Source of the DNA: a virus
Strand: one strand, 5' to 3'
Length of the DNA stretch: 64,000 nt
Virus record (IMG/VR): IMGVR_UViG_3300025646_000031
Coordinates: 6,462-70,461 of that record
Translations under genes and position numbers: made by a program
The notes under the pieces: model-generated
What the model was told of the DNA's origin: nothing
Databases searched by the model: none
Seen by the model: only the letters and a program-made list of their open reading frames with translations
Part shown: positions 4,092 to 33,241 of the stretch, piece after piece
Numbering within the stretch: the first letter of the stretch is position 1
Layout: each line of letters starts with the position of its first letter

Positions 4092-7000
4092 ATGTCACAC
4101 GAAAAATATGTCATAGATAGTTTGTCGCAAAGATTGCCAGGTCTTCTACCTGAATTTGTCAGAGAAGAAGCACCAGTCTTTGAACAATTTCTAAAGGCAT
4201 ATTTTGAGTACTTAGAACACGAGATTCTAACATTAGAATCTCAAAGTGATATAGATGGCATACTATTAGAAGACGGCGATGGTTCTATGTTATTAGAACC
4301 ATCGACTGTTTTACCTGATCCAGATGCAGAGAGTTCTAAGATAGTTTTCGAAAGAACTGCAACGAATACAAATTCAAATGCAGATCCTTTTAAACCAGGC
4401 GAATACATTTATGGAAAAACAAATGGTTCAGTCGCAAAGATTGATCTTATAAACGGCAACACACTTTTCATATCAAGTATTTCAGGAATAGGTTTCTCAA
4501 ACGGAGAAATCGTTGAAGGTAGAGACGGTGGTCAGACTGGTACGGTTTCATCTTACAAACAAAATACAATTGTTGCCAATAATAGATTATTGGATATGGG
4601 AGATATTGACCATACTTCTGAAGAATTTATCCAATATTTCCAAAAAGATTTTGTACCGTCATTAGACTTAACTAATGTACCAAACAAAAGACTAGCAATC
4701 AAACACATCAAAGAACTTTATCAAACAAAAGGTACAGAAGAGTCAGTTAAGTTCTTAATGAGAATACTTTTCGGACAAGATTCTGAACTTAGATATCCAA
4801 TAAACGAAACAATATTTGTATCAGATTCAGAATATAAAGAACAACGAAGACTTGTTGTAGTGATGGACAAAGATACACTACCACAAGCAACAGATAAAAT
4901 TACAAAATTTGATACAGACGGAAGAACTGTATTAGCACAATCAATTGTTGAGAATGTATATGTAGAAGATGTTGCATCATACACATATTCGATTCATATA
5001 AAAAACAATCATTACGGAACATTCTCAGATGGAGATGCCGTAACATTTTTAGATAGAGACGACAAAACAACATTCACTGGTACTATCAAAGGTATCATTG
5101 CAGGAACCAATTTAGACAATTCATCTGTTTATGTTAAACATGATGATGATGGTATTATTCTTTTAGAAGATGGCGCTGGTCTCACACTAGAAACTGCTTC
5201 AACAGGTTCAATGTATCTTTTAAATGATAAGATACATTTTAGTGGTGCTAAAGGCGATAATGATGTTATTAAATCAGAGTCAGTAGTTGATGGTCTCACT
5301 TATGGTCCTATTACACATGTTTATATTGAAGATGATGGACAAAATTATGATGCAGGTGATCTAATTGTATTTGAAGATAGTCTTAGATCAGGTGGTGCAG
5401 AAGCAGTAATCGGTTCTGTAGGCGATGAACTTCTTTTAGAAAACATAGTCGCATGGGGTCAATTTGAAGTTACTGCAAGTGTTGGTCAAACATTATTTAA
5501 TGGTGTAGACGATAATGGCAATAGAATATTCTTTAACGACAATATAGTTAGAGTCTTTGTAGATGGCCTAGAAAAAACTAGAACAACAGATTTCACATTC
5601 CAAAACGATAGAATCACATTCTTAACTCCTTTGTCAGGCGGTGAGTTAGTTGAAATCTATACATCTTTCAATAGATTGATGTATGAAGATGGCACTCTAA
5701 TAAACCAAGAAACAACAGTTGGTAATATCAGATCAATACAAATCAATGATGGTGGTTGGTATAATAGTGTACCAAGAGTATATCCTGGCGGTTACATTTA
5801 CTTTGATAACATAACAGGTTTCCAAGAAGGCGAAGTTGTTACAGGAACAAATTCTTCCGCAACTGCAACTATTCTAAGACTTGAACCAAAGAAAAATAGA
5901 ATCGTTGTTAAAAGAGAATCGACAGACACAGGTGTGTTTATTGACGGAGAACAAATTACAGGTGGTACTTCAAGTACACAAAAATTAAATAAGAACACAA
6001 CTGTTTCATCAGGAACAGGCGCTAAGATATTTGCATATGGCGAAAACATTGGCGGTGTTCAATCTATCAATATACAAGATCAAGGTTACAACTTCAGTAG
6101 TGATGGTGTCTTATCATCATCATCTTTTGTACCAATGTTGATCAAAACACCAACTGCAAATTTAACAAGAGATATAGAACTTACAGGTGATATCTCAGGT
6201 GCAACTGCAAAAGTTGTATCTTATGATGCAGATAGACACATATTAACTGTTAAAGATTTAGATGGTTGGTTCTTAGATAACGAAACCGTTTCTTACAATA
6301 ATATAGATGAATTTGATGTAATTAAATTTGATCCTTTCACTGGTCGTGGTACACGAGCTGGTGAAGGTATCATGCAAAAACAATTCTTAGATGTTAAATC
6401 TTTCCTTGATGAAGATGCATCTAATATACATGATGGTAGATATTATCAAACACATTCGTATGTCATCAAAGTTGGTGAATCTATCAACAAATGGAGAGGT
6501 GCATTAAAAGACCTAATTCACCCAGCAGGTCATATATTCTTCGGTGAAGTTGCAATCAAAAACGAAATAGATGCATCTATCGTAGAAACTAGATTCAGAC
6601 CTACAATTATAATTGGTTTAGAAGTTGTACCTTATGTTGTAAATGCTTTCACAAACTCAATGAGAGAAGTTGAAATTTACACTAATGCAGATGAGATGAA
6701 TACACCATTAGTTGTACTCAGAGATGCAGGTGGAGATCAATCATCAAATTCTCGAAACGAGAATGCTCATTTCAATGTAAACATACAACAATTACATTCA
6801 TTATCATCTTCACAGGTAGGTCTACTTACAAATAATGGTATACCTACAGTTCTATCGTTAGATACTGCAGATAATAATTATCTAGTTAGAAGTACAGAGA
6901 GAAGACCTGCAATTGAAGGTAAAATATACACATCATATGATATTATAGATGAAGTATTGATATTAGAAGATGGTGGTCGAATAGAATTAGAAGAAGAACT

Positions 7001-17272: not shown

Positions 17273-18385
17273 ATGGCAGACGAAATTTATATAAACACAG
17301 GAAGTACATTTCAACAACCGTATAACGCTAGAACACCTGCAAACGCCCAACAACCTTATATTGCTAATGCACAGCAACCTTATCCATACATTGCGAATGC
17401 ACAACAACCTTATATAGCAAACGCACAGCAACCGTATCCATATATTGCGAATGCACAACAGCCATACATTGCTAATGCACAGCAACCATATCCTTATATT
17501 GCCAATGCACAACAACCTTATATAGCAAATGCACGGCAACCATATCCTTATATTGCCAATGCACAACAACCATATATAGCAAATGCAAGAAACCCATTTA
17601 CATATGCTAGACAGGCACAGACACCATATCCTTACATAGTAAACGCTAGATCACCGTTTACTTATCAGGTGCCATTTATAACTCAGCAACCATACACTTT
17701 TAATGCTAGAACGCCGTTTACTTATCAGGCACAAGGTCGTGTACCTGCAAGTGCCCAACAACCATATACCTTTAGTGCCAGAAGACCTGCAGTAGGTAGA
17801 ATACCTTACATATATGCAGGTGATACAAGTTATATTGGTTCGAGTGGTTTAATTATAGATGATTGGGCTGAAACTAGTTCTGGTGGTGTTACCTCAGTTG
17901 CTGGTGTAATAATTTATGCTTACTACAGTAGTGCTAGTGAAATTCAACTAAAAGCACACATTTACTCTGCTGAGGATACTAGTTGGTACAACACTTCAAA
18001 TGTGCTTCAGGATCCCACTGCAGGAAAAGATTTACCACCAAACAATTTATTATACAAAATAGAAGATGTTGAAAGTGGTTATACTGTTAGATACTCTATA
18101 ACTGGTGGTACAACTACAACAGGAGATGATTATGCTACGGTGACTGGTTATAGTAGTTCTCCTGCAAATGCTAGTATGAGCCCGATTGTAGGTTCAATTT
18201 CAACAACTACTATACGAGGTGTCTTATTTAGGCATGTTGTAACTGTTAGTGACGGTGAATCTGCAAGTGGTGATACTTTGTTTGATAATGTTTCATTTAT
18301 ATTTGAAAAATCTGGTTCAACAACCTTTACAAAAACCTTTGATATCTTCTGTAATGCAAGTGCAGATTCTTATGGAGGGCAATAA
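17273..18385 (+). CDS. Pro/Tyr/Gln repeat protein A1 with C-terminal globular domain
   Basis: N-terminal DEIYIN, 20 Pro-delimited units (17318-17803), then about 190 aa of non-repetitive beta-rich sequence. Confidence 0.85.
   Translation: MADEIYINTGSTFQQPYNARTPANAQQPYIANAQQPYPYIANAQQPYIANAQQPYPYIANAQQPYIANAQQPYPYIANAQQPYIANARQPYPYIANAQQPYIANARNPFTYARQAQTPYPYIVNARSPFTYQVPFITQQPYTFNARTPFTYQAQGRVPASAQQPYTFSARRPAVGRIPYIYAGDTSYIGSSGLIIDDWAETSSGGVTSVAGVIIYAYYSSASEIQLKAHIYSAEDTSWYNTSNVLQDPTAGKDLPPNNLLYKIEDVESGYTVRYSITGGTTTTGDDYATVTGYSSSPANASMSPIVGSISTTTIRGVLFRHVVTVSDGESASGDTLFDNVSFIFEKSGSTTFTKTFDIFCNASADSYGGQ
17318..17803 (+). repeat. Coding tandem repeat of 18/24/30-nt units (A1)
   Basis: Unit lengths in aa: 6,6,8,10,8,10,8,10,8,10,8,10,10,6,6,8,10,6,8,6. 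Confidence 0.9.
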
Positions 18386-18641: not shown

Positions 18642-19286
18642 ATGCCTGTAGGTCAACAACCATATATCTATCAACAACCTTACATTGCTTCAGGTAGCAC
18701 TCCTATTATCGTTCAACAACCATATCCTTATATTGCAGAAGCTAGACAACCCTATATTGCTCAAGGTAGAACACCGACACCTGCTAGATATCCAGCTGAT
18801 GCTCAACAACCTTTTACTTTTCAGGCACAAGGTCAGACACCTTATCCGTATATTGCAGCTGCACAGCAACCATTTACCTATCAGGCTAGATCACCGTTTA
18901 CATATGCTAGACAAGGTCAAACACCGTTCACATATCAGAACAGGCAACCGTTCACATATGCAACACAAGGCAGAACGCCATTTACCTATCAGAACAGAAC
19001 TCCGTTCACATATGAAACACAAGGTAGAACACCATTTACCTATTCGAATAGAACGCCGTTTACTTATGCTAGACAAGGTCAAACACCGTTCACATATCAG
19101 AACAGGCAACCGTTCACATATCAAAATCCTTACATTGCAACAAGACCTATAGGTCCACTTGCAAAAGTTAAAGGCGTGTATGTAAACCAAGGTGGGTCTG
19201 TAGTACAAGTTGATGAAATCTATGTAAACAATTCTGGTACATTAGAAAAAATTCATCAACATCCATCTCAACCGTTTGACACCTAA
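18642..19286 (+). CDS. Pro/Tyr/Gln repeat protein B1
   Basis: GGAG SD; 20 units (18660-19145); C-terminal VKGVYVN..G...DEIYVN motif. Confidence 0.85.
   Translation: MPVGQQPYIYQQPYIASGSTPIIVQQPYPYIAEARQPYIAQGRTPTPARYPADAQQPFTFQAQGQTPYPYIAAAQQPFTYQARSPFTYARQGQTPFTYQNRQPFTYATQGRTPFTYQNRTPFTYETQGRTPFTYSNRTPFTYARQGQTPFTYQNRQPFTYQNPYIATRPIGPLAKVKGVYVNQGGSVVQVDEIYVNNSGTLEKIHQHPSQPFDT
18660..19145 (+). repeat. Coding tandem repeat (B1), mirror of A1
   Basis: Unit lengths in aa: 6,8,6,10,8,6,6,10,10,8,10,8,10,8,10,8,10,8,6,6; a 57-nt block is identical at 18903 and 19065. Confidence 0.9.
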
Positions 19287-22910: not shown

Positions 22911-22918
22911 TATAAATA
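22911..22918 (+). promoter_or_regulatory. Late promoter
   Basis: TATAAATA. Confidence 0.8.
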
Positions 22919-22944: not shown

Positions 22945-24957
22945 ATGGCAACTCAAAAAAAATTCATTGCAGACCTAGGATTTGAAACTCCAAGTGATTT
23001 GACTGTAAATGGTAATGCAACCATTGATGGAAATGCAACTGTAACAGGAAATCTTACTGTTAACGGAACATCAACCACAGTTAACTCAACCACTACATCT
23101 GTAACAGACTCAATGATTGAGCTTGCGAATGCGAATACAGGTTCAGATACACTTGATATTGGTATATACGGAAACTATGATGATGGTTTATCAGATGGTG
23201 GTGCAAGTGAATACACAGGTTTATTCAGAGATGCTTCAGACTCAACTTGGAAACTCTTTGATGGTTTAGAAGAAGAACCTACCACAACAGTCAATACAGC
23301 AGGAACAGGTTACGCAAAAGCAGCCTTAGAAGTTGGCGATCTATCTTGTACTACACTTACTGCAACTAACAGTCTTACAGGTGCAAGTATTACCTACCCA
23401 ACCTCAGACGGCACTGCTGGACAGTTTTTACAAACTGATGGAAGTGGAACATTATCATTTACTTCTGTTACAAGTTATTCTGATTCAGATGTAGAATCAT
23501 ACTTAGATGGTGGAACATCAACCCCTATTTTAGCAAATGCAACATTTGGTGGAATGAAACTTTTAAACCAAGCGGGCGGTGGTTCTATAGGATTAAATAG
23601 AGACCCTGCTGATGGCAATTATGTTGGTTCTGCAAGTTTACAAAGATTCCAAATCAACGGCCCACAAAGTGGTTCAGACTTTTTAGATTTTCAATCTTAT
23701 AACAGCAGTGGAACATATACAGGAAGTTTTTATCTAAATGCTGGCAAGCTTGGTATAGGCACAAACGCTCCTGACGATTTGCTTCATGTCTATGCAGGAA
23801 ATTCAGGAGCTACACCACATAGTCTCTCAGCAATGAATATTGAAAGTAGTTCAGATGTTGCAATGAATTTCCTAACTCCAAATACATCTCAAGCACAAAT
23901 AAGATTTGCAGACCCACAAGACGATGGAAAAGGCATTATTGGTTATAATCACAATGGTGATTACATGTTTTTTGCAACCAATGGGCCTGAGAAAATGAGA
24001 CTAAATTCTGACGGAAATCTCGGCGTTGGTATATCTACCATAGAACAACTCGGTTCAGATAGTGTATACCCAAGAATACAATCATATAGTTCCGATACAT
24101 CAGGACATTTCTGTGGATTGATGATTGGTCGTCCTAATTCACCAGGACTTGAATCATCAATGGCATTTACTGTTGGCGGAATTATGGTTGGAAAGATACA
24201 ACATGACTATGTTGCAGAAAATCATAACGATATGTCATTTCACCTTAGAGGTTCTTCAGGAGGTGGAGATATAGAGGTAATGAGACTGTGGGCTGGTTCA
24301 GGTAATGATACAGCTTTATTGGTAGGTAGAACAACAAGGTCTTGGGCTAATGCAGCTTTAGAAGTAGAAAGTAATGCAAGAATAGGAAACATATACCTAA
24401 CTGGTAGTGGTTCAGACAGCACAATATCAGCAGGTAATGCAAGCTATAAATTTAGCACAGCAACTGTAAATTGTGGTGCAACTGATTTAGATTTTGATGT
24501 AAATGTTGTAGTAACTGGTGTAGGAATCGCAAATAGATTTAAAGTTGATTCCCCAACTGGTGATACATATACAAATGATGGAACAATATCCTCATTATCA
24601 GATATAAGAGTTAAAACAGATATAAATGATTTGACAGATGGTCTTGAAATAGTAAAACAATTAAGGCCAGTTACTTTTAAATATAACGATAATTCAACAG
24701 ATGATGATGGAAATGGTATGTTGGCAGCTGCAGACGATAAAATTCGTTATGGATTTATTGCACAAGAGGTAGAAGAAGTTGCTCCTCATTATGTAGAAAC
24801 ATCAACAAGAAAAATAAACAATGAAGAAGTTAATGATTTTAAATCTTTATCAACAACAAGAATGATACCTATGTTATTTAAAGCCATCCAAGAACAACAA
24901 ACCATCATTGAAGACCTCAAAGCAAGAATAGAAACATTAGAGAACGCAAATTCGTAA
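22945..24957 (+). CDS. Tail fibre/spike with C-terminal peptidase S74 intramolecular chaperone
   Basis: LGIGT..P...LHV and EKMRL...GNLGVG repeats; S/DIRVKTDI...L.PV.F.Y...GFIAQEV...coiled-coil C-terminus. Confidence 0.85.
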   Translation: MATQKKFIADLGFETPSDLTVNGNATIDGNATVTGNLTVNGTSTTVNSTTTSVTDSMIELANANTGSDTLDIGIYGNYDDGLSDGGASEYTGLFRDASDSTWKLFDGLEEEPTTTVNTAGTGYAKAALEVGDLSCTTLTATNSLTGASITYPTSDGTAGQFLQTDGSGTLSFTSVTSYSDSDVESYLDGGTSTPILANATFGGMKLLNQAGGGSIGLNRDPADGNYVGSASLQRFQINGPQSGSDFLDFQSYNSSGTYTGSFYLNAGKLGIGTNAPDDLLHVYAGNSGATPHSLSAMNIESSSDVAMNFLTPNTSQAQIRFADPQDDGKGIIGYNHNGDYMFFATNGPEKMRLNSDGNLGVGISTIEQLGSDSVYPRIQSYSSDTSGHFCGLMIGRPNSPGLESSMAFTVGGIMVGKIQHDYVAENHNDMSFHLRGSSGGGDIEVMRLWAGSGNDTALLVGRTTRSWANAALEVESNARIGNIYLTGSGSDSTISAGNASYKFSTATVNCGATDLDFDVNVVVTGVGIANRFKVDSPTGDTYTNDGTISSLSDIRVKTDINDLTDGLEIVKQLRPVTFKYNDNSTDDDGNGMLAAADDKIRYGFIAQEVEEVAPHYVETSTRKINNEEVNDFKSLSTTRMIPMLFKAIQEQQTIIEDLKARIETLENANS

Positions 24958-25046
24958 AAAACTTCCCTAAAACATATCGTTTGAAGAGTAAGACTTACTA
25001 AATACATGTGTATATACCCAAAAACATTTTTTAGGACACACTAAAC

Positions 25047-25280
25047 ATGGCAACACAAAACAAATTTGTTATCGAATACGGACTTAGTGTAGGTTCTACA
25101 GAAGTAATCACATCTTCAGGTAAAATCGTTGCAGCTGCAATCTCAGACTTAGACACAGACGATCTTTCAGAAGGTTCTACAAATGTTTACTTCTCGACCT
25201 CCAGAGTCGATACTCATCTAGCAGACGGAACTGCATCAAAAACATTAAACAATGTTCAGATTGATGGAGGCACACTATAA
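25047..25280 (+). CDS. Miniature fibre-module protein
   Basis: N-terminus paralogous to 25280 (GSTEVI.SSGKI); DTDDLSEGSTN.YF motif; ends IDGGTL. Confidence 0.7.
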   Translation: MATQNKFVIEYGLSVGSTEVITSSGKIVAAAISDLDTDDLSEGSTNVYFSTSRVDTHLADGTASKTLNNVQIDGGTL

Positions 25281-26752
25281 TGGCAGGCGAAAAGAATTTC
25301 GTAGTTAAGAATGGTATTTCAATCGGTTCAACCGAAGTCATATCATCTTCAGGTAAAATTGCAGCTGCAGCTTTATCATCAAATACAGATTTCACAGAAC
25401 AGGTACAAGATATTGTCGGTGCTTTTATCACAGGAACAGGTTCAACAACAGTAACCTACAACGATGCTGGTGATGCACTTACAATCTCATCAACAGGTAA
25501 AACCGAAGAAGAAATCCAAGATATCGTTGGTGCTCAGTTAGTAACTAACGGTTCACATACAAATATCACTGCATCTTATGATGATGCTGGTGATGGTGCT
25601 ATTGATCTTTCTATTTCAGACGCAACTATTCAATCTAAGATTACTGCTGGAACTGGTGTGTCGGTTTCAAGTGGTCAAGTTAGTATCGGTCAGGCAGTAG
25701 GAACTTCAGATTCGCCCACATTTGCAGGTATGACACTTACAGGTGCATCAACAGTTTCAGGACATATTCTTCCTAGTGCTGATGTTACCTACGACTTAGG
25801 TTCAGCATCGTATCAATGGCGAGATGTCTATGTTGGTCCAGGATCTTTGTATGTTAACGGACAAAAGGTATTAGAAGATAACTCAGGAACAATTGTTGTT
25901 TCTGCTGATTCAGATCAGAATCTTCAGATAAAAACTGCTGGTAGTGGTGACATTGAGTTTAATCCATCAGGCACAGGTATTATTCAAGCAAAAGGTACAC
26001 TTCAAATGCTTGATGGTGAGTTAATCACTAACAGTGCTGGTAACAATGTTGCATTCGGAAACAATATCAGTGTAGATCAGATCGCTTCAAGAAGTGCAGA
26101 CACTAACTTAGTATTGAGTGGTAATGGAACAGGTAATGTTACACTTAATGATTCAGTTGTAATCACAGGTGACCTTACAGTTTCAGGAACTACAACTACT
26201 GTTAACTCAGAGACAATCAACCTTGCAGATAACATTCTAAACCTAAACTCTGATTTCACTTCAGGTGTACCAACACAGGATGCAGGTTTAAGTATCTCAA
26301 GAGGTGGTTCAGCAGCAAAAACATTCTTATGGGATGAGACTAACGATAGATGGACAGTCGGTTCAGAATCTATGGTCGCAGGAACATTCATTGGTAACCT
26401 AACTGGTGCAGTCACAGGTAATGCATCTACTGCTTCTGCTCTTTCAAGTGCAGTAACAGTTTCACTTTCAGGTGATGCTTCAGGTAGTGCAACATTTACA
26501 AGTGCAGGAGATACTGCTTCAATATCGGTTACAGTTGCAGATGATTCACACAATCATATTATCGGAAATGTAGATGGACTACAAGCAGCTTTAGATGCAA
26601 AATATGGTAGTGGTTCTAATGCAACACTAGGTACAATAACAACAAGTAACGCAAGTAATTCAGGCGGATATGTAAGAAATATTTACCAATCAACATCAAC
26701 TCCAGGTTCTGGTGATGGTGCAGTTGGTGATTTGTGGATATATTATTCTTAA
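25280..26752 (+). CDS. Fibre-like structural protein (cassette 2 anchor)
   Basis: QDIVGA repeats, GDLTVSGTTTTVNS, H.H motif, C-terminal STP....GDLW. Confidence 0.75.
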   Translation: MAGEKNFVVKNGISIGSTEVISSSGKIAAAALSSNTDFTEQVQDIVGAFITGTGSTTVTYNDAGDALTISSTGKTEEEIQDIVGAQLVTNGSHTNITASYDDAGDGAIDLSISDATIQSKITAGTGVSVSSGQVSIGQAVGTSDSPTFAGMTLTGASTVSGHILPSADVTYDLGSASYQWRDVYVGPGSLYVNGQKVLEDNSGTIVVSADSDQNLQIKTAGSGDIEFNPSGTGIIQAKGTLQMLDGELITNSAGNNVAFGNNISVDQIASRSADTNLVLSGNGTGNVTLNDSVVITGDLTVSGTTTTVNSETINLADNILNLNSDFTSGVPTQDAGLSISRGGSAAKTFLWDETNDRWTVGSESMVAGTFIGNLTGAVTGNASTASALSSAVTVSLSGDASGSATFTSAGDTASISVTVADDSHNHIIGNVDGLQAALDAKYGSGSNATLGTITTSNASNSGGYVRNIYQSTSTPGSGDGAVGDLWIYYS

Positions 26753-26781
26753 TACTAAATAAGAATAATTAGTGAGGATAA

Positions 26782-28047
26782 ATGGTAACAGGTAATCAAA
26801 AGGTTAAGACCCCTACTGGTTGGAATTCCACGCAAGGTGCATGGGTTAAAACAGGTGCTACTACTTGGAAAGCAGTAGAACAAATCTATGTAAAAACGCC
26901 TACTGGTTGGAACAACGCTTCAGGTCAAGCATTAACACAACAACCATATCCTTATATAGCGAATGCTCAACAACCTTATATTGCTAATGCACAGCAACCT
27001 TATCCATATATAGCAAACGCCCAGCAACCTTATATCGCTAACGCTCAACAGCCTTATCCCTATATAGCGAATGCTCAGACACCCTATATCGCTAACGCTC
27101 AACAGCCTTATCCGTATATAGCAAACAGTCAGACACCATTCACATATCAAGCGAGGTCACCGTTTACATATAGTAATAGATATCCTGCAAATGCTCAGCA
27201 ACCTTACATTGCAAACAGTCAGACTCCATTTACATATAATAATAGATCGCCGTTTACATATAGTGCAAGATATCCTGCTAACGCTCAACAACCTTATATT
27301 GCAAACGCAAGACAACCGTTTACATATAATAATAGATCACCGTTTACATATAATGCAAGATATCCTGCTAACGCACAGCAACCGTACATAGCTAATGCTA
27401 GACAACCTGGCACATATCAGGTTCCTTTCAGTTATCGTGTTCCATACATCGCTAACGCTAGACAACCTGGCACATATCAAGTACCGTTTTCTTATCGAGT
27501 GCCTTATATTGCGAATGCTCAACAACCATTTACATATAGTTTTAGATTTCCATTCCTTTATCAATCAGCATTCCAGAAATTTGGATTTCAGGGTTGTTTC
27601 TTATGTTGTGTACATGATACTATGTTGGTGGCAACTGAGGAAGATATGAAAAGTATTTACGATTTAAATATAGGTGATAAAGTCATTTCACATAATTTTG
27701 AAACTGGACAAGATGAAGTAGTAGAAATAACCGATATCGTAATTGTTGATAGAGATGTAGATTACAAAGTCAACGATCTGATTATGACAGAAGACCATCC
27801 AGTTTACTTAGAGGGTGGCAGAAAAGCTTCAGTAAATCCTGATGCAACACTTTTAAACTACAAGCAAGAAGTTGATCAGTTAGTTGTTGGTGATAAAATG
27901 ATGAAACTTGATGGTTCATTAGAAGAAATTACTTCTATAGAACATTATGAGGGAAATCATAAAAACTTTGCAGTTCAAACCAAGTATAATAATTTCTACG
28001 CAAATGGACATTTGGTAGATTCAGTCATTGATAGAGGTAATAACTAA
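26782..28047 (+). CDS. Pro/Tyr/Gln repeat protein A2 with C-terminal Hint domain
   Basis: GAGG SD; three VKT...W motifs; 26 repeat units; Hint blocks CCVHDTMLV, L.IGDKV, TEDHP and NFYANGHLV. Confidence 0.85.
   Translation: MVTGNQKVKTPTGWNSTQGAWVKTGATTWKAVEQIYVKTPTGWNNASGQALTQQPYPYIANAQQPYIANAQQPYPYIANAQQPYIANAQQPYPYIANAQTPYIANAQQPYPYIANSQTPFTYQARSPFTYSNRYPANAQQPYIANSQTPFTYNNRSPFTYSARYPANAQQPYIANARQPFTYNNRSPFTYNARYPANAQQPYIANARQPGTYQVPFSYRVPYIANARQPGTYQVPFSYRVPYIANAQQPFTYSFRFPFLYQSAFQKFGFQGCFLCCVHDTMLVATEEDMKSIYDLNIGDKVISHNFETGQDEVVEITDIVIVDRDVDYKVNDLIMTEDHPVYLEGGRKASVNPDATLLNYKQEVDQLVVGDKMMKLDGSLEEITSIEHYEGNHKNFAVQTKYNNFYANGHLVDSVIDRGNN
26944..27549 (+). repeat. Coding tandem repeat (A2)
   Basis: Unit lengths in aa: 10,8,10,8,10,8,10,8,8,6,8,8,8,6,8,8,8,6,8,6,6,8,6,6,8,8. 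Confidence 0.9.
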
Positions 28048-28739
28048 TGCCAATAGCTGAAGGACAACAACCAACGATTGGAAATGCTAGGAGCCCTTTC
28101 ACCTATGAGGCGAGGTATCCAGCGATTGCTTACTATCCTGCTAACTATCAGAATCCGTTTACTTACGATGCTAGATATCCAGCGATTGCTTTCTATCCTG
28201 CTAACTATCAGAATCCGTTTACTTACAATGCTAGGTCGCCGTTTACTTATCGTGTGCCTTATATAGCAAATGCTCAACAACCATATATAGCTAACGGACA
28301 AAACCCATTTACTTATAACGCTAGATCACCGTTTACTTATCGAGTGCCTTATATTGCGAATGCTCAACAACCATACATAGCAAACGCTAGACAGCCTGGC
28401 ACATATAATGCTAGATCACCTTTTACCTATCAGGTTCCATACATTGCGAATGCTCAACAACCATACATAGCAAACGCTAGACAACCTGCAACATATCAAG
28501 CGCAAGGTAGAACTCCGTTCACATATCAGAACAGACAACCTTCTACATATGAAACACAAGGTAGAACTCCGTTCACATATCAGAACAGATCACCGTTCAC
28601 TTATGCTACACAAGGTAGAACTCCGTTCACATATCAGAACAGAACTCCGTTCACTTATGCTACACAAGGTAGAACACCAGTTGCTCGTTGGGATGGTGTG
28701 TTGACACAGCAGTGGCCTGCAACACCTGTATCTTCTTAG
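28047..28739 (+). CDS. Pro/Tyr/Gln repeat protein B2
   Basis: GAGGT SD; TAATG coupling to A2; almost entirely repeat. Confidence 0.85.
   Translation: MPIAEGQQPTIGNARSPFTYEARYPAIAYYPANYQNPFTYDARYPAIAFYPANYQNPFTYNARSPFTYRVPYIANAQQPYIANGQNPFTYNARSPFTYRVPYIANAQQPYIANARQPGTYNARSPFTYQVPYIANAQQPYIANARQPATYQAQGRTPFTYQNRQPSTYETQGRTPFTYQNRSPFTYATQGRTPFTYQNRTPFTYATQGRTPVARWDGVLTQQWPATPVSS
28071..28676 (+). repeat. Coding tandem repeat (B2), mirror of A2
   Basis: Unit lengths in aa: 8,8,6,6,8,6,6,8,6,8,8,8,6,8,8,8,6,8,8,10,8,10,8,10,8,10. Confidence 0.9.
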
Positions 28740-28742
28740 TGA

Positions 28743-28750
28743 TATAAATA
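28743..28750 (+). promoter_or_regulatory. Late promoter for the enzyme cluster
   Basis: TATAAATA. Confidence 0.75.
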
Positions 28751-28780
28751 TTATTATTAATCAATAATTTATTATGAAAA

Positions 28781-30379
28781 ATGACAGAGAAAAAAATACC
28801 TACTTGGAAAAGAAATCTAATTAGAATTACTTCTGTAGAAGAAGCAGAACAAATCAAACCATTAGATTATTCAAATAATTCCATTTTTAAATTACGAATG
28901 GATTTACCCACCTATCATTTGGGAACTCTATGTATCAATCGTTATTCAGATTATAACGAAACTTACAAAATACTGAAGTATCTTTTTGAAAACAAAATCT
29001 TACCACCTTTGAAAATTTTTAAATGGGGTGATGTAATTGCTGATCGAAAAGAAAAAAGATTGGCTTCTTTTAATGGTTTGAATTATCACTCAATGGTCTA
29101 TAACAGATTTCTACCTCATGGTTGGACATCTAAACCAGACCCAAAATATATTGGTGGTATGAATTTCCAATCAATTGATGGTGACGATAAGACCATACAT
29201 GATTATTGTATGGAAAAAGACGATCCGTACTACAACGATCAGGGCTGGTTAACTTCTTTAAATGCTTCTTACTATCATTCTGCTAAAGCACACTGGTTAG
29301 TTCATAGTATTCAAAAGGAAGGACTATGGGCGCCTGTTCAAGGATTGACATCAGGTACAAAAGAACGATACAGTATTTTCGCACATCCAGGTTCTATCAG
29401 ATCAGCTATTGTAGAAGAGATGCAAGATCCAGATTTAGTATGGCATGTTTGGGATTGTGTTGGTGTTATACCAACTGAACCAAAAACAGTTGATGAGTTT
29501 CTTCAGTTTTGGAAAGAAGTTTTAAATAAAAAAAATGTAAAACAAGATGAAATGTCTTTTATAATACAGGCAGGAGCAATTGAAGTACAAACAGATTTAG
29601 CAAGTTTAGAGTTTAGAAATGAAATATATGATTTCAATAAAAAGGTTTCAAAACTTGCAAAGAAAAAACCATTAAACATTTACATTGGTTATGATTCAAC
29701 ACACAATGATATAGAAAAGATTTCAAAATATTCTATAGAAGAATCTATTAAGAGAAATTTTTCAGGCGGCAATGATGGTAAGTATACACAATTTGTTCCT
29801 GAAATAAAAATGCTTGACATTTCTAAGATTCCAGAATATACTAGACCTTATGCAAATCAAAATACAGAGTTTACTTATAGTAGATTTTTAATTCCGTATT
29901 TAGAAAATTATGAAGGATTTAGCATCTTTGTAGATGATGATTTCATCTTTAATAAAACTATATTGTCATTGTTATATTACTTACATCCAGATGATGCAGT
30001 TGCATGTATTCAATATCCACAATACAAACATGATAACACTAAATTTGTTGGTGCAGTTAACATAGATTATCCAAGAAAACTATGGTCTAGTATGATGGTC
30101 TTTAATAATGGACATGAAGACTGCAAAAAACTAACACCTGAAACAATAAATACTTGGACAGGAAAACAGTTACATCAATTTGAATGGACTGAAAAGATCA
30201 GTAAGATACCTGAAAAATATATCTTTACTGAAGGTTATGATGATCCTGAAACTAAGTGGGATGTTTCAGGTTATCATTATACAAGAGGTGGTCCTTGGAT
30301 TGACGATATGGACTGTTCAAAAATTTCTAGGTTAGAAGTTTATGAAAAATTTAAAACGCTTTATGAAAGTGAGAGGTAA
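28781..30379 (+). CDS. GT-A fold glycosyltransferase (GT8/CDI-like) with an additional N-terminal domain
   Basis: IYIGYD, TEFTYSRFLIP, FVDDDF (DxD), YPRK.WSS and HYTRGGPW motifs in the C-terminal half. Confidence 0.8.
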   Translation: MTEKKIPTWKRNLIRITSVEEAEQIKPLDYSNNSIFKLRMDLPTYHLGTLCINRYSDYNETYKILKYLFENKILPPLKIFKWGDVIADRKEKRLASFNGLNYHSMVYNRFLPHGWTSKPDPKYIGGMNFQSIDGDDKTIHDYCMEKDDPYYNDQGWLTSLNASYYHSAKAHWLVHSIQKEGLWAPVQGLTSGTKERYSIFAHPGSIRSAIVEEMQDPDLVWHVWDCVGVIPTEPKTVDEFLQFWKEVLNKKNVKQDEMSFIIQAGAIEVQTDLASLEFRNEIYDFNKKVSKLAKKKPLNIYIGYDSTHNDIEKISKYSIEESIKRNFSGGNDGKYTQFVPEIKMLDISKIPEYTRPYANQNTEFTYSRFLIPYLENYEGFSIFVDDDFIFNKTILSLLYYLHPDDAVACIQYPQYKHDNTKFVGAVNIDYPRKLWSSMMVFNNGHEDCKKLTPETINTWTGKQLHQFEWTEKISKIPEKYIFTEGYDDPETKWDVSGYHYTRGGPWIDDMDCSKISRLEVYEKFKTLYESER

Positions 30380-30385
30380 AATAAA

Positions 30386-30952
30386 ATGAATATGAATACA
30401 GTGAATGCACTTGTGTATTGTGAAAACTCAAATCTCTATATTAGAAAACCTAATGGTTTAGAATATCAATTTGATAATGTTGATGCTCCTGCATTGGGTT
30501 TTGACTTTGATGTTTTAATCTACGAAGATGGATTAGAAACAAAGATATTAAAATGGAACGATGGTAAACCATTGCAGGAACAAGAACAATTTCCTTTATC
30601 AGACAATGAAAAGGACATGATTGAAACTTATATTGCAAATTCAGAACCGCCTGAAGGTGTCACTTTACAAAGACAATATGTTGAAAGATTAGAAAAAATT
30701 GCCGATGAATATGTCGACAGGTATATGTATCAACATAATTTTCGTGATTTAAACAAAGTTGTAGCAATTGGTAGAGAAGGATCAAATCATCCAAATAGAT
30801 CAGATGCTAGAAGAGTATTGGAGTATTTTGATGCAGTTTCAACTGTATTCATACAGGTTGTAGATCAAATCTATTCTTGTAGAGAAGATATGTTAAAAGA
30901 ATTCAGAGAATATGAAGTTCTTCTTCCTACTATTGTTAATCAATATGAATAA
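30386..30952 (+). CDS. Hypothetical protein, possibly tail-fibre-assembly-like
   Basis: GAGGT SD; helical C-terminus loosely resembles phage fibre assembly proteins (recalled, not searched). Confidence 0.45.
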   Translation: MNMNTVNALVYCENSNLYIRKPNGLEYQFDNVDAPALGFDFDVLIYEDGLETKILKWNDGKPLQEQEQFPLSDNEKDMIETYIANSEPPEGVTLQRQYVERLEKIADEYVDRYMYQHNFRDLNKVVAIGREGSNHPNRSDARRVLEYFDAVSTVFIQVVDQIYSCREDMLKEFREYEVLLPTIVNQYE

Positions 30953-31694
30953 AGAACTAGATGTAGTTCTAATAGATAAACCATTTGATATAAAAGAACT
31001 ACCCCTAAAATCAGTTTATGTTTTAGATGATTGGTTGTGTGATTCATTACACCATTATTTTGATAATTGGGTAACAAAAAACCAAATATGGGCAAAAACA
31101 AATCAAGTAGATTCACATAGTAAAACTGGTTTACCACATCATAGTTTTTGGGGTACATCCTTCTTAAGAGACGATTTTCAATCAGAGCCTGGTATTGGGA
31201 AAGAAAATACCTTTTTTGTTAAATACATAATAAGAAGATTACAAACAGAGTTTAGTTTTAAATGGACCAGATTTCAGTATGCTGGCATGAATTCCCAAAC
31301 AGTAGGTTTACACGGCACAACACATTCGGATTGTCAAGATGAAGATGATTGGAATCTATCATTTCTATACTATACAAATAGATATTGGAACCCTAAATGG
31401 GGTGGTAAATTAAGATTGTATGATAAAGTTGTTCAGTCGCCTGAACATGATGATATGATGCAAGGTGTACACGGCAGAACAGAACACATTAAAAACTATC
31501 AAATTGCAGAAGTGGATTTCAAACCTAATAGGCTTGTAATGTTTGATGGTAGAATACCTCACGGAGCTGATGCTCCAAATGAAAGCGCTAAATACATGGA
31601 TAGAAGATCGCTAGTGATAAGAGGCGATGAAGTTAGACTAATTAAAGATAAAAAAGAGTTTTATAATGCCAACGATAGAGTTCACTTGTTATAA
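30945..31694 (+). CDS. 2OG-Fe(II) oxygenase
   Basis: H-S-D, WGG.L, FKPNRLVMFDG.IPH...R motifs. Confidence 0.85.
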   Translation: MNKELDVVLIDKPFDIKELPLKSVYVLDDWLCDSLHHYFDNWVTKNQIWAKTNQVDSHSKTGLPHHSFWGTSFLRDDFQSEPGIGKENTFFVKYIIRRLQTEFSFKWTRFQYAGMNSQTVGLHGTTHSDCQDEDDWNLSFLYYTNRYWNPKWGGKLRLYDKVVQSPEHDDMMQGVHGRTEHIKNYQIAEVDFKPNRLVMFDGRIPHGADAPNESAKYMDRRSLVIRGDEVRLIKDKKEFYNANDRVHLL

Positions 31695-32553
31695 TTCTGA
31701 TACAGTAAAGTATTTTAAACCTGTACTTGCTAAAACTGTTTTACCAGATTGGTGGAAAACCATGAAGATACAGGAAATGACAAGATTTACAAAACAACAT
31801 ACAATACGATCCTGCCCAGCGATGGACGATTGGGTGAAATCTGGTTGGTATCTAGTTGCAAATAAAGATATAAGAGTCATTTGCGGAAAAGATAGAGATG
31901 GACAAGATACAGATAGTGAAAGTTATTCAACTGAAGATACGGAAGGAACTGGTTATTCATCGCCTCCACATCCAAGAGAACAATTTGGCAATGTATTCAA
32001 TTTCTTAGGAAAAAATAGAGCACCTATTAGAGATGCTTTTAAGATGAAGAATCCTTGGAATGTAATCACACCAAAGGGATATTCTTGTTTTTATATAGAT
32101 CCATTTTTACATCAAAACGAATTCTTTGCAACTTGGCCTGGCATTATAGATACAGACAAGTTTAATAAAAATATGGACAATGCACAAATCATTTTTTATC
32201 CTAAGGTAGATCATTCATTCACGATTTTAAAAGGCACGCCATTATGTCAGATCATTCCTTTTAAGAGAGAGGAATGGGTTGCAAGTTATCAATTTAGAGA
32301 TGTAAATGATTACATTAAAAATTTATCTCATATAACTTCGGAACAAAAAAATATGGATGAAAGACCTATGATAGAACACAAAAGAATGGCGCCAGATACA
32401 AATATTTTTAAAGCAGGACCTTATCGTAAACATGGATATTGGAGTGAAAAGGGCCAATATTTCAAGGAAGAAAGTCCACCACCTGAATGTCCTTTTCATA
32501 AAAAAGAAGAAAGTTCAGAGATACAATTGGAGTTTGATTTCAATGGCAGTTAG
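31666..32553 (+). CDS. Hypothetical beta-rich protein (DUF6065-like) of the type found beside phage oxygenases
   Basis: TIRSCPAM.D...GW, K..NPW...TPKGYS, PGIIDTD and KGTPLCQIIPFKRE.W motifs. Confidence 0.6.
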   Translation: MPTIEFTCYNSDTVKYFKPVLAKTVLPDWWKTMKIQEMTRFTKQHTIRSCPAMDDWVKSGWYLVANKDIRVICGKDRDGQDTDSESYSTEDTEGTGYSSPPHPREQFGNVFNFLGKNRAPIRDAFKMKNPWNVITPKGYSCFYIDPFLHQNEFFATWPGIIDTDKFNKNMDNAQIIFYPKVDHSFTILKGTPLCQIIPFKREEWVASYQFRDVNDYIKNLSHITSEQKNMDERPMIEHKRMAPDTNIFKAGPYRKHGYWSEKGQYFKEESPPPECPFHKKEESSEIQLEFDFNGS

Positions 32554-33241
32554 GTTATTATTTCCAACATTCATTTTTCATAGAAATCTCTTAGATAAGA
32601 ATTTACCTGAAGATAGAGGTATTACAAAGGAGTATTTAAATCTACTTAAACTAGAAATGGATAGTATGAGAAAAAATGATCCTAAGGGACGACAAATCTC
32701 TAATGCATATACAGGTTGGCAGTCAAATGATGGGTGTGAGAAAAGTCCAATATTTAAGAAGTTAATGCACTGTATTCAAATGGCTTTTTATGATGAAGTC
32801 TGGCCTTTTCATGGTGTTCAAAGAAAGGACATTACTTGTTTTGTGGGCAATTCGTGGGCAAACATCAATGATCGTTTAGCATGGAACAGACCTCATACTC
32901 ACAATGGTTGTTGGTATAGTGGAGTATTCTATGTTAGAGCAGATGGTGATGAGGGTGATATAAATTTCATAGATACTGATTCTAAAGTTGTTTCAGATTA
33001 TCCTGCAAGCTCTAGAACATGCACTAGTTGGAACTTTGCACCAAGATCAGGAGAATTGATTTTATTTCCTAGTGGTCTAATGCATATGGTAGAACCCAAT
33101 ATAACAGATAAAGATAGATATAGTATCTCTTTCAATTTAGTACATGATGTTAGAGGCAATTTGCATGGTCATATTGAGAACTATAATGAGAATGAATTTG
33201 TTTTTAATTTAAACGAAAAGGGTGATCCCATACTGAACTAG
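32543..33241 (+). CDS. Putative 2OG-Fe(II) oxygenase, TIGR02466-like
   Basis: WANIN...H.H...SGVFYV, G.LILFPS.L.H.V.PN...DR.SISFN; GGAG SD before 32543. Confidence 0.85.
   Translation: MAVRLLFPTFIFHRNLLDKNLPEDRGITKEYLNLLKLEMDSMRKNDPKGRQISNAYTGWQSNDGCEKSPIFKKLMHCIQMAFYDEVWPFHGVQRKDITCFVGNSWANINDRLAWNRPHTHNGCWYSGVFYVRADGDEGDINFIDTDSKVVSDYPASSRTCTSWNFAPRSGELILFPSGLMHMVEPNITDKDRYSISFNLVHDVRGNLHGHIENYNENEFVFNLNEKGDPILN

Follow-up and report, generated by a model that had tools for sequence, protein, structure and literature searches.

Mirrored and complementary unit orders in adjacent genes of a T4-like phage: a candidate sequence-coded antiparallel protein duplex

The DNA analysed here, a stretch of 64,000 nucleotides (positions 6,462 to 70,461 of the IMG/VR record IMGVR_UViG_3300025646_000031; hereafter the window), contains two adjacent plus-strand genes, A2 (26782-28047, 421 amino acids, aa) and B2 (28047-28739, 230 aa), each coding for a long array of repeat units that start with proline. 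The order of unit lengths in A2, here called its barcode, is identical to that of B2 read from the C- to the N-terminus, and units which come to lie opposite each other are of complementary type. The same mirror recurs in homologous gene pairs of other phages and is accompanied by covariation between opposite units, which makes it likely that A2 and B2 pair as an antiparallel, in-register beta duplex forming the shaft of a fibre. The record containing the window comprises 70.5 kb at an estimated completeness of 39%, and judged by its genes it derives from an uncultured, aquatic T4-like myovirus. The two genes are built as follows.

26782-26943, plus strand: A2 N-terminal domain, residues 1-54, with three VKTPxGW-like strands, conserved in the family
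26944-27549, plus strand: A2 repeat array, residues 55-256 (202 aa), 26 proline-started units of 6, 8 or 10 residues
27550-27594, plus strand: A2 aromatic/glycine linker, residues 257-271 (15 aa), leading from the array to the Hint-like domain
27595-28047, plus strand: A2 C-terminal domain of predicted Hint/BIL (bacterial-intein-like) fold, residues 272-421 (150 aa), with stop codon
28047-28070, plus strand: B2 N-terminus, residues 1-8, its start codon overlapping the A2 stop codon in ATGA
28071-28676, plus strand: B2 repeat array, residues 9-210 (202 aa), 26 units, reversed and type-complementary relative to the A2 array
28677-28739, plus strand: B2 C-terminal tail PV.RWDG.L.QQWPATP.SS, residues 211-230, with stop codon, conserved in the family

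Mirrored unit orders within and between phages

Units were cut at each proline, with a two-residue PY being merged with the following unit. Cut in this way, A2 reads 10,8,10,8,10,8,10,8,8,6,8,8,8,6,8,8,8,6,8,6,6,8,6,6,8,8, and the identity of this series with the reversed B2 series, claimed in the original prediction, was reproduced for 26 of 26 units and 202 aa in each protein. Read forward, the two series match at 8 of 26 positions, the best circular shift giving 15 of 26. The permutation test of unit order that had been proposed with the prediction rules out chance as the origin of the mirror, as none of 200,000 shuffles reached 26 matches (maximum 24); the multiset of 26 units allows 2,549,632,800 different orders. 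Every pairing of opposite units listed beforehand was found in A2 and B2, and all units of both proteins are of even length, as had been stated. A crude division into two types makes 22 of the 26 opposite units complementary, and the remaining four belong to the class PGTYQV:PANYQN / PFSYRV:PAIA(F/Y)Y. A second gene pair in the window (A1 and B1, cassette 1, with A2 and B2 representing cassette 2) is an independent exact mirror of 20/20 units and 162 aa in each array. The code scores amount to 22/26 for A2-B2 and 14/20 for A1-B1 versus 5 for each of the two cross-cassette pairs, by which measure neither cassette matches the other.

It is very improbable that the mirror merely reflects inverted duplication, gene conversion, antisense coding or low-complexity chance, with no physical pairing behind it. 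Such a by-product at the DNA level would fit the unit vocabulary common to both genes and the tandem DNA periods of 54, 60 and 90 bases. However, no inverted repeat of at least 14 bases exists within 26782-28739, in line with the prediction, and the antisense frames of A2 encode unrelated peptides rich in Leu, Ile, Cys and Arg; antisense coding and inverted duplication were rejected on these grounds. An inversion would moreover not leave both genes coding on one strand, and, apart from the shuffles that speak against chance, the mirror is kept through dozens of barcodes and in both gene orders.

These barcodes originate from a scan of IMG/VR with B2, for which 80 of 146 matching stretches were taken, resulting in 79 distinct loci. 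Eight of the 79 were left out, as a contig end leaves them with a single repeat open reading frame (ORF), and the remaining loci together with the two window cassettes gave 46 distinct barcode pairs of 12-71 units, six of them cut by a contig end. The prediction depended on correlated unit orders in homologous pairs, and this correlation was found throughout: the mirror score was above that of any of 200 shuffles of the units in the partner in 46/46 pairs, and above the forward score likewise in 46/46, with an exact mirror in 13. It is still present where the gene order is B then A (L060, L067, L077 and L078). Among the 39 complete distinct typed pairs, arrays are 162-532 aa long and the lengths of partners are correlated (r = 0.985), which, along with the low cross-cassette scores, supports the predicted role of the code in setting partner and length. 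In 35 of these 39 pairs, the own partner was the best among all 39 B proteins, with a mean own score of 0.80. The corresponding means are 0.14 for antiparallel A:A, 0.10 for antiparallel B:B and 0.26 for parallel A:B, so that the code scores argue against homomeric or parallel pairing, and self-pairing of A or of B was discarded. The related phages L027 and L033 illustrate compensating change: in A as well as in B they differ by the replacement of a block, and the two replacements sit at mirrored positions. Five larger relatives carry two cassettes each, about 9-10 kb apart, and 30 further loci with cassette-1-type pairs were found by eye to be mirrored, featuring local 8/10 swaps and units merged where a proline was lost. 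A split of one gene by sequencing error was excluded as an explanation, since A and B occur as separate genes throughout the 46 distinct pairs, either overlapping or up to about 330 bases apart. With at least 79 plus 30 IMG/VR loci and hundreds of protein clusters, the genes are widespread in uncultured T4-like phages of aquatic bacteria.

Cassette 1 differs from cassette 2 in its flanking modules and comprises the following parts.

17273-18385, plus strand: A1, with a short N-terminus (MADEIYIN...), 20 units (162 aa) and a globular C-terminal domain of about 190 aa
18388-18639, plus strand: ORF of 83 aa exactly spanning the gap between A1 and B1, a candidate assembly factor for the A1 tip domain
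18642-19286, plus strand: B1, with 20 units mirroring A1, followed by a C-terminal module KVKGVYVN...DEIYVN

The DEIYIN of the A1 N-terminus (17273-17320) is echoed in VKGVYVN...DEIYVN at the C-terminus of B1 (19150-19260). In a fold-back structure, the A1 N-terminus and the C-terminal module of B1 would form one small end domain.

Single-chain relatives of cassette 1 offer a view of the same arrangement within one protein, and the motif pair DEIYIN / VKGVYVN...DEIYVN flanks every one of them. In L094 (record G004), the position of cassette 1 is occupied by one ORF of 531 aa, with which A1 aligns start to start (residues 1-216, E 8e-20) and B1 end to end (residues 309-506, E 5e-35). A protein search with this ORF yielded 405 relatives at E <= 1e-5, and 42 with 97-100% coverage were taken from 120 of these; after a second search, 179 proteins were compared. 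An A1-like N-terminus together with a B1-like C-terminal module was detected in 43 of the 179, whereas 49 feature only the A1-like N-terminus, 31 only an A2-like N-terminus and one only the B1-like C-terminal module; 54 match none of the end motifs. The last one, P0019, is a hybrid single chain of 502 aa with a cassette-1-type N-terminus and a cassette-2-type RWDG tail, indicating that end modules of the two cassette types recombine. No single-chain form of the cassette-2 type occurred among the 179 proteins. In P0004, P0003 and P0006, the units of the N-terminal arm (residues ~28-152) pair one by one with those of the C-terminal arm (~299-423) taken in reverse, the types being complementary in 35 of 40 pairs of equal length. 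A mirror within one chain has no other explanation than a fold-back of that chain, and at the level of unit order this shows the split into A and B to be a variant of a hairpin. AlphaFold2 (AF2) modelling of P0004 (482 aa) from an alignment of 43 fused proteins gave a low-confidence model (mean pLDDT 36.2, pTM 0.17), whose only built parts are the C-terminal module and the strands at 20-37 and 412-429.

Pairing code at residue level and the proposed duplex

The residue-level statistics comprise 1663 opposite unit pairs of equal length from 53 locus pairs. Complementary types were found in 751 of 769 8-residue pairs, 258 of 268 10-residue pairs and 537 of 617 6-residue pairs, with the other 6-residue pairs consisting of a third, Tyr-Tyr class (74) and of like with like (6). 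Mutual information between position i of one unit and position j of the opposite one is located in even-even cells with i+j = L or L+2 (L being the unit length) and not at i = j. Along this anti-diagonal it surpassed each of the 200 controls, which exchanged B units only with others of identical locus, length and type. The idea that bulky residues face small ones is corroborated by the side-chain volumes at even positions, which anticorrelate at i+j = L (r = -0.59) and at L+2 (r = -0.37), with r = -0.01 at L+4. The mirror, the complementarity of types and the anti-diagonal covariation thus agree in supporting the antiparallel, in-register pairing that had been proposed for the two chains.

Throughout the family, 3527 of 3529 units are of even length. 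The even positions of A2 are aromatic in 41% and charged in 0% of cases, with 0% aromatic residues at odd positions; family-wide, even positions are 34-41% aromatic and almost uncharged, and odd positions are held by Pro, Gln, Arg, Thr, Asn and Ile and lack aromatics. As far as can be read from the residues, an unbroken two-residue alternation over hundreds of positions is the signature of a continuous amphipathic strand, and a proline every 6-10 residues excludes long helices. The prolines would always lie on the same edge and face, where they would spare the hydrogen bonds between the chains and block the outer edges.

In the proposed duplex, each chain would be one very long amphipathic beta-type strand interrupted by a proline every 6, 8 or 10 residues, with aromatic residues or Ala at even positions and polar residues, bearing all charges, at odd positions. 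Unit k of A2 would lie opposite unit 27-k of B2, so that an IANA-type unit faces an FTY-type unit of equal length and, on the apolar face, bulky side chains meet small ones. The succession of unit lengths and types would hence act as a code resembling a reverse complement, which sets partner, register and length. Its apolar face would probably cause such a duplex to bundle with others (three in all, judging from other fibres) into a thin shaft, measuring about 65-70 nm if the 202-residue chains are fully extended. The conserved end, made up of the A N-terminal domain and the B tail, would probably lie nearest the virion. At the tip, the variable C-terminus of A would come together with the short N-terminus of B, and in A2 this end bears the Hint/BIL domain.

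A different fold of the same partners is considered unlikely, namely one in which the still antiparallel chains turn at the prolines and interdigitate as alternating rungs of a compact beta-solenoid or beta-helix. It would result in a short, thick rod of about 10 nm instead of a filament of about 65 nm. In its favour, polar residues follow a short core with beta propensity (YIA or FTY) in each unit, and the periods of 18, 20 and 30 residues recall the rung lengths of solenoids; 8-residue repeats are also known from the phage shaft formed by gp5C of T4. The anti-diagonal covariation is compatible with such a solenoid as well, because it reports only antiparallel contacts between units. Nevertheless, the nearly invariable even unit length and the polarity unbroken across unit borders suit a continuous strand, given that a solenoid may reset its parity, and rungs varying between 18, 20, 22, 28 and 30 residues would stack poorly, although neither point is decisive. 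Structure prediction of A2 (residues 1-271) together with B2, with an alignment of 40 rows each and with controls not run, yielded an ipSAE of 0.00 in both runs and a partner pLDDT below 50, values that count neither for nor against pairing. For B2 in the ESM Atlas, its own model has a pLDDT of 0.48 and the neighbours are hypothetical viral proteins.

Several observations weigh against the antiparallel beta duplex or the generality of its code. The registers L and L+2 are about equally favoured by mutual information and volume complementarity, and the array units are related by duplication, wherefore the covariation statistics overstate their independence. Moreover, 33 of the 46 distinct pairs are not exact mirrors owing to end overhangs, local 8/10 swaps and contig truncation, and in 4 of 39 pairs the own partner was not the top one (ranks 2, 2, 6 and 6). 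The A array of L030 has 68 units compared to 71 in L027, the difference lying at the tip end, although both B arrays are identical with 70 units; a short overhang at the tip end thus seems to be tolerated. As to the single-chain relatives, the mirror of the proline barcode lies above all shuffles in only 4 of 19 proteins tested, while a further protein ties with the shuffle maximum and one has a forward score above its mirror score. A subgroup (P0042-P0076) features 7-residue PxAAxxx units of like type, which are mirrored in both arms (17 I:I pairs), so that even length and type complementarity are not universal rules. Finally, no isolate among 50,697 GenBank phage records carries the genes, although the low-complexity filter and the exclusion of near-identical sequences may hide matches.

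Fibre ends, gene neighbourhood and significance

The conserved parts of the family are the A N-terminal domain, whose invariant columns in 40 sequences include M1, G4, Q6, V8, K9, T10, P11, G13, W14 and Q53, and the B C-terminal tail (R214, W215, D216, W223, P224 and P227, likewise in 40 sequences). In an antiparallel duplex, the former meets the latter. The A C-termini are variable and consist of a glycine run followed by either 10-15 residues or a Hint domain, or else of another domain of 150-200 aa. Where A ends in a globular non-Hint domain, as in the window, L041 and L062, a small ORF occupies the gap between A and B. In the two relatives, these ORFs code for 95 aa (L041, 5710-5997) and 100 aa (L062, 5423-5725) and look alike by eye. 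By analogy with the layout of fibre tip and assembly factor in other phages, which this arrangement recalls, the gap ORFs may represent tip-assembly factors.

The C-terminal domain of A2 (residues 272-421) was modelled by AF2 with high confidence (pLDDT 88.8, pTM 0.85). A Foldseek search of the PDB with this model gave 56 matches at E <= 0.001, the best being the BIL2 domain 6y75 of the Tetrahymena BUBL locus (E 3e-11, TM 0.84), and further ones including the C. thermocellum BIL domain 2lwy, inteins and the Hedgehog autoprocessing domain HhC (1at0). According to the model, the domain has a Hint/BIL fold. A Cys column and a His-Pro column are invariant in 15 aligned sequences, and A2 features the N-terminal Cys as well as the T-x-x-H-P motif, in the form TEDHP. 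Its sequence remains below the Pfam gathering scores, with AXH as the only match (20.8 bits vs a cut-off of 33). Three homologues exceed the Pfam cut-offs, namely L013 (Vint 32.5/27, Hint 31.4/29.7), L043 (Intein_splicing 45.1/35.8) and L072 (Vint 31.1/27).

The end of the A2 domain reads LVDS in place of the C-terminal His-Asn, and the protein stops 8 residues later. Owing to the lacking His-Asn and the terminal position, the domain should be capable of N-terminal cleavage or transfer at most, and it probably cuts itself off at its N-terminal Cys. Among 13 distinct Hint domains, 11 end in VHN plus 4-6 residues, the +1 residue being G, M, I or L and thus no nucleophile. Hint-bearing A genes were observed in L013, L021, L023-L025, L028, L043, L050, L069, L072 and L079, and most of their products show the sequence glycine run, Cys...VHN and a basic tail of 4-6 residues; in A proteins that lack the domain, the glycine run is followed by 10-15 residues with K or R as the last one. 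Excision of the Hint domain would leave a glycine run with a short basic tail, the arrangement found in homologues that lack the domain, which suggests that the Hint domain of the A proteins is an intein-like insertion near the tip end.

BIL domains are able to ligate the N-extein to amines. A bolder proposal, to which we give little credence, is that the Hint/BIL thioester at the tip joins A to an amine of B (alpha-amine or Lys) or to another tip protein, so that the duplex is covalently closed. The thioester of A would form just where the B N-terminus lies in an antiparallel duplex, and the joined A-B product would be a post-translational version of the hairpin that the single-chain relatives encode directly. 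Most relatives, having His-Asn and a basic tail of 4-6 residues, would instead splice out the Hint domain and restore the Hint-less tail. If true, covalent closure combined with the unit code would constitute a natural, programmable and orthogonal protein duplex with enzymatic end-joining.

The gene neighbourhood of A2 and B2 is that of a late fibre operon, delimited by two matches to a T4-type late-promoter-like motif.

22911-22918, plus strand: TATAAATA, directly before the ORF at 22945 and heading the operon 22945-28739 (fibre genes, A2 and B2)
28743-28750, plus strand: next TATAAATA, where the fibre operon ends and a glycosyltransferase/oxygenase operon begins

All 12 matches to this motif in the window lie on the plus strand, compared to 6.87 expected, and 4 of 100 shuffles reached 12; the count is thus only weakly in excess of chance. 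The sites that were checked, e.g., 22911, 28743, 38269, 40855 and 43522, are positioned directly upstream of ORF starts. A2 and B2 are the last genes in a run of fibre-like genes behind the motif at 22911, and a gene upstream of A2 (22945-24957) matches Peptidase_S74 of Pfam with E 7.7e-17. The ORF directly after B2 (28781-30379) shows a weak Pfam match to Glyco_transf_8, and tightly packed genes continue to 33241. The fibres are rich in Pro, Tyr and Asn, and a modification of them by the genes of 28781-33241 is conceivable. Sheath, portal, major head protein and terminase were recognised in the window by PHROG annotation, with the major head protein being 65% identical to those of the Pelagibacter phages HTVC008M and Mosig and the Methylophilales phage Melnitz. 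The gene layout agrees with the "host recognition cluster" described for pelagimyophages and cyanomyophages (PMC7029224).

In public sequencing data, the stretch 26000-29500 was found in 20 runs from 12 studies labelled freshwater, estuary and marine. Identical contigs also occur in freshwater and estuary runs, and "marine" is therefore possibly too narrow a habitat for this phage. The metatranscriptome library X10 contains contigs identical to parts of A2 and B2, though such libraries can contain DNA. Joints at 90% likeness in run X19 most likely represent relatives or mis-joined repeats.

The position in the operon and the layout of the ends also bear on the possibility that A2 and B2 pair but do not belong to the finished fibre, being instead a ruler or scaffold by which the length or register of a different fibre protein is determined during assembly, or a decoration of some other part of the particle. 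A2 would have no recognisable receptor-binding tip once the Hint domain is cleaved off, and the array length varies from phage to phage, as that of a ruler would. Yet other A proteins combine a C-terminal domain of 150-200 aa with a small ORF, which is the usual layout of fibre tip and assembly factor, A2 and B2 apparently share an operon with a late-type promoter with fibre genes, and no candidate for a measured partner was identified. Such a role outside the fibre is regarded as quite improbable, and the duplex as fibre shaft is preferred.

If the chains pair in this manner, they would represent a natural case of protein-protein recognition that works like that of nucleic acid strands, with two complementary unit types, three lengths and antiparallel orientation. 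The code would evolve by compensating insertions and substitutions in two genes, with non-matching versions in one genome. Fibrous proteins would thereby gain a new structural principle, and the co-evolution of two proteins would, as in few other cases, be readable directly from sequence. Protein engineering would be supplied with dozens of ready-made pairing modules that are orthogonal and of defined length. Furthermore, such pairing would bear on the host-recognition structures of uncultured aquatic T4-like phages.

Comparison with known systems

Searches of Pfam and PHROGs with A1, B1, A2 and B2 assigned no family, and matches of relatives to Cementoin, Cornifin and DUF1388 were dismissed as compositional and below cut-off. 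Against the GenBank phages, tblastn with A2 gave only Mycobacterium phage ThetaBob (25% coverage), taken as compositional, and tblastn with B2, distant blastn with 26900-28739 and megablast with 22945-26752 all came back empty. A search for B2 in HTVC008M, Melnitz and Mosig gave no match, an empty result obtained without positive control and of little weight. In 8.4 million papers and preprints, the strings PYIANA, IANAQQ, PFTYQN and PFTYNAR had 0 occurrences and YIANAR appeared only inside unrelated words; a literature search on phage fibres, antiparallel heteromers and beta-ribbons, which excluded supplementary files, returned nothing relevant. The chain-like two-protein fibre of podophage A1002 was set aside as unrelated, consisting of globular dimers on a rope protein (PMC13730344). 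The statement of the original prediction that no phage fibre built in this way has been described accordingly holds within the literature and databases searched.

The homotrimeric parallel beta shafts of phages and adenoviruses (triple beta-helix, triple beta-spiral) consist of one chain type with identical, parallel repeats, an arrangement against which the code scores argue. A collagen-like triple helix was excluded, as the share of Gly is 2-7% at even positions, Gly ranks below the nine most frequent residues at odd positions, and the period is two residues within units of 6, 8 or 10. In SMC/Rad50 antiparallel coiled-coil arms and in heterodimeric leucine zippers, a periodic residue code sets partner and register of two-stranded rods. 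These, however, are based on helical heptads, and a coiled-coil zipper was rejected for A2/B2 because strict two-residue alternation with a proline every 6-10 residues is found in place of the heptad pattern. The likeness to BIL/Hint proteins is confined to the appended C-terminal domain of A2 and does not extend to the zipper, and the features of true splicing (C-terminal His-Asn and a +1 nucleophile) are absent from this domain.

Closer parallels are offered by systems in which repeats pair in opposite directions. In the stalk of streptococcal antigen I/II, the A-region helix and the P-region polyproline helix pair antiparallel to form a thin stalk with the ends together. As in A2/B2, two different repeat regions would thereby pair antiparallel over a long distance; antigen I/II, in contrast, is a single chain made of an alpha helix and a polyproline II helix, has no barcode of units with variable length and is not a phage protein. 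In the tandem beta-zipper, the motif array of bacterial fibronectin-binding repeats adds strands antiparallel to the ordered F1 modules of fibronectin, and the order along one chain is thus the reverse of that in the partner, as in A2 and B2. There, the partner consists of folded host modules, whereas A2 and B2 would both be extended repeat chains and are encoded by adjacent genes.

The nearest known analogue is the needle (domains D10-D11) of gp37, the tip protein of the T4 long tail fibre. This needle was reportedly described as six-stranded by Bartual et al. in 2010. According to a further description, gp37 is trimeric, with every chain running out to the tip and then back; D10 comprises residues 811-881 and 1010-1026, and the core holds seven irons on His residues (PMC6957217). 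Three of the four defining features of the needle (single chain, core His, and sequence or profile similarity) are lacking in A2/B2. Unlike gp37, which is one chain, A2 and B2 are two ORFs; in contrast to the iron bound by His in gp37, none of the 52 units of A2 and B2 contains a His; and similarity to gp37 was absent from Pfam, PHROG and PDB-chain searches up to E 1, where only an unrelated esterase (E 0.16) appeared. In A2/B2, moreover, the register would be set by a unit code over 200-530 residues. The feature shared with gp37 is the out-and-back topology with both flanks at the same end, which would be adopted by the cassette-1-type single-chain relatives.

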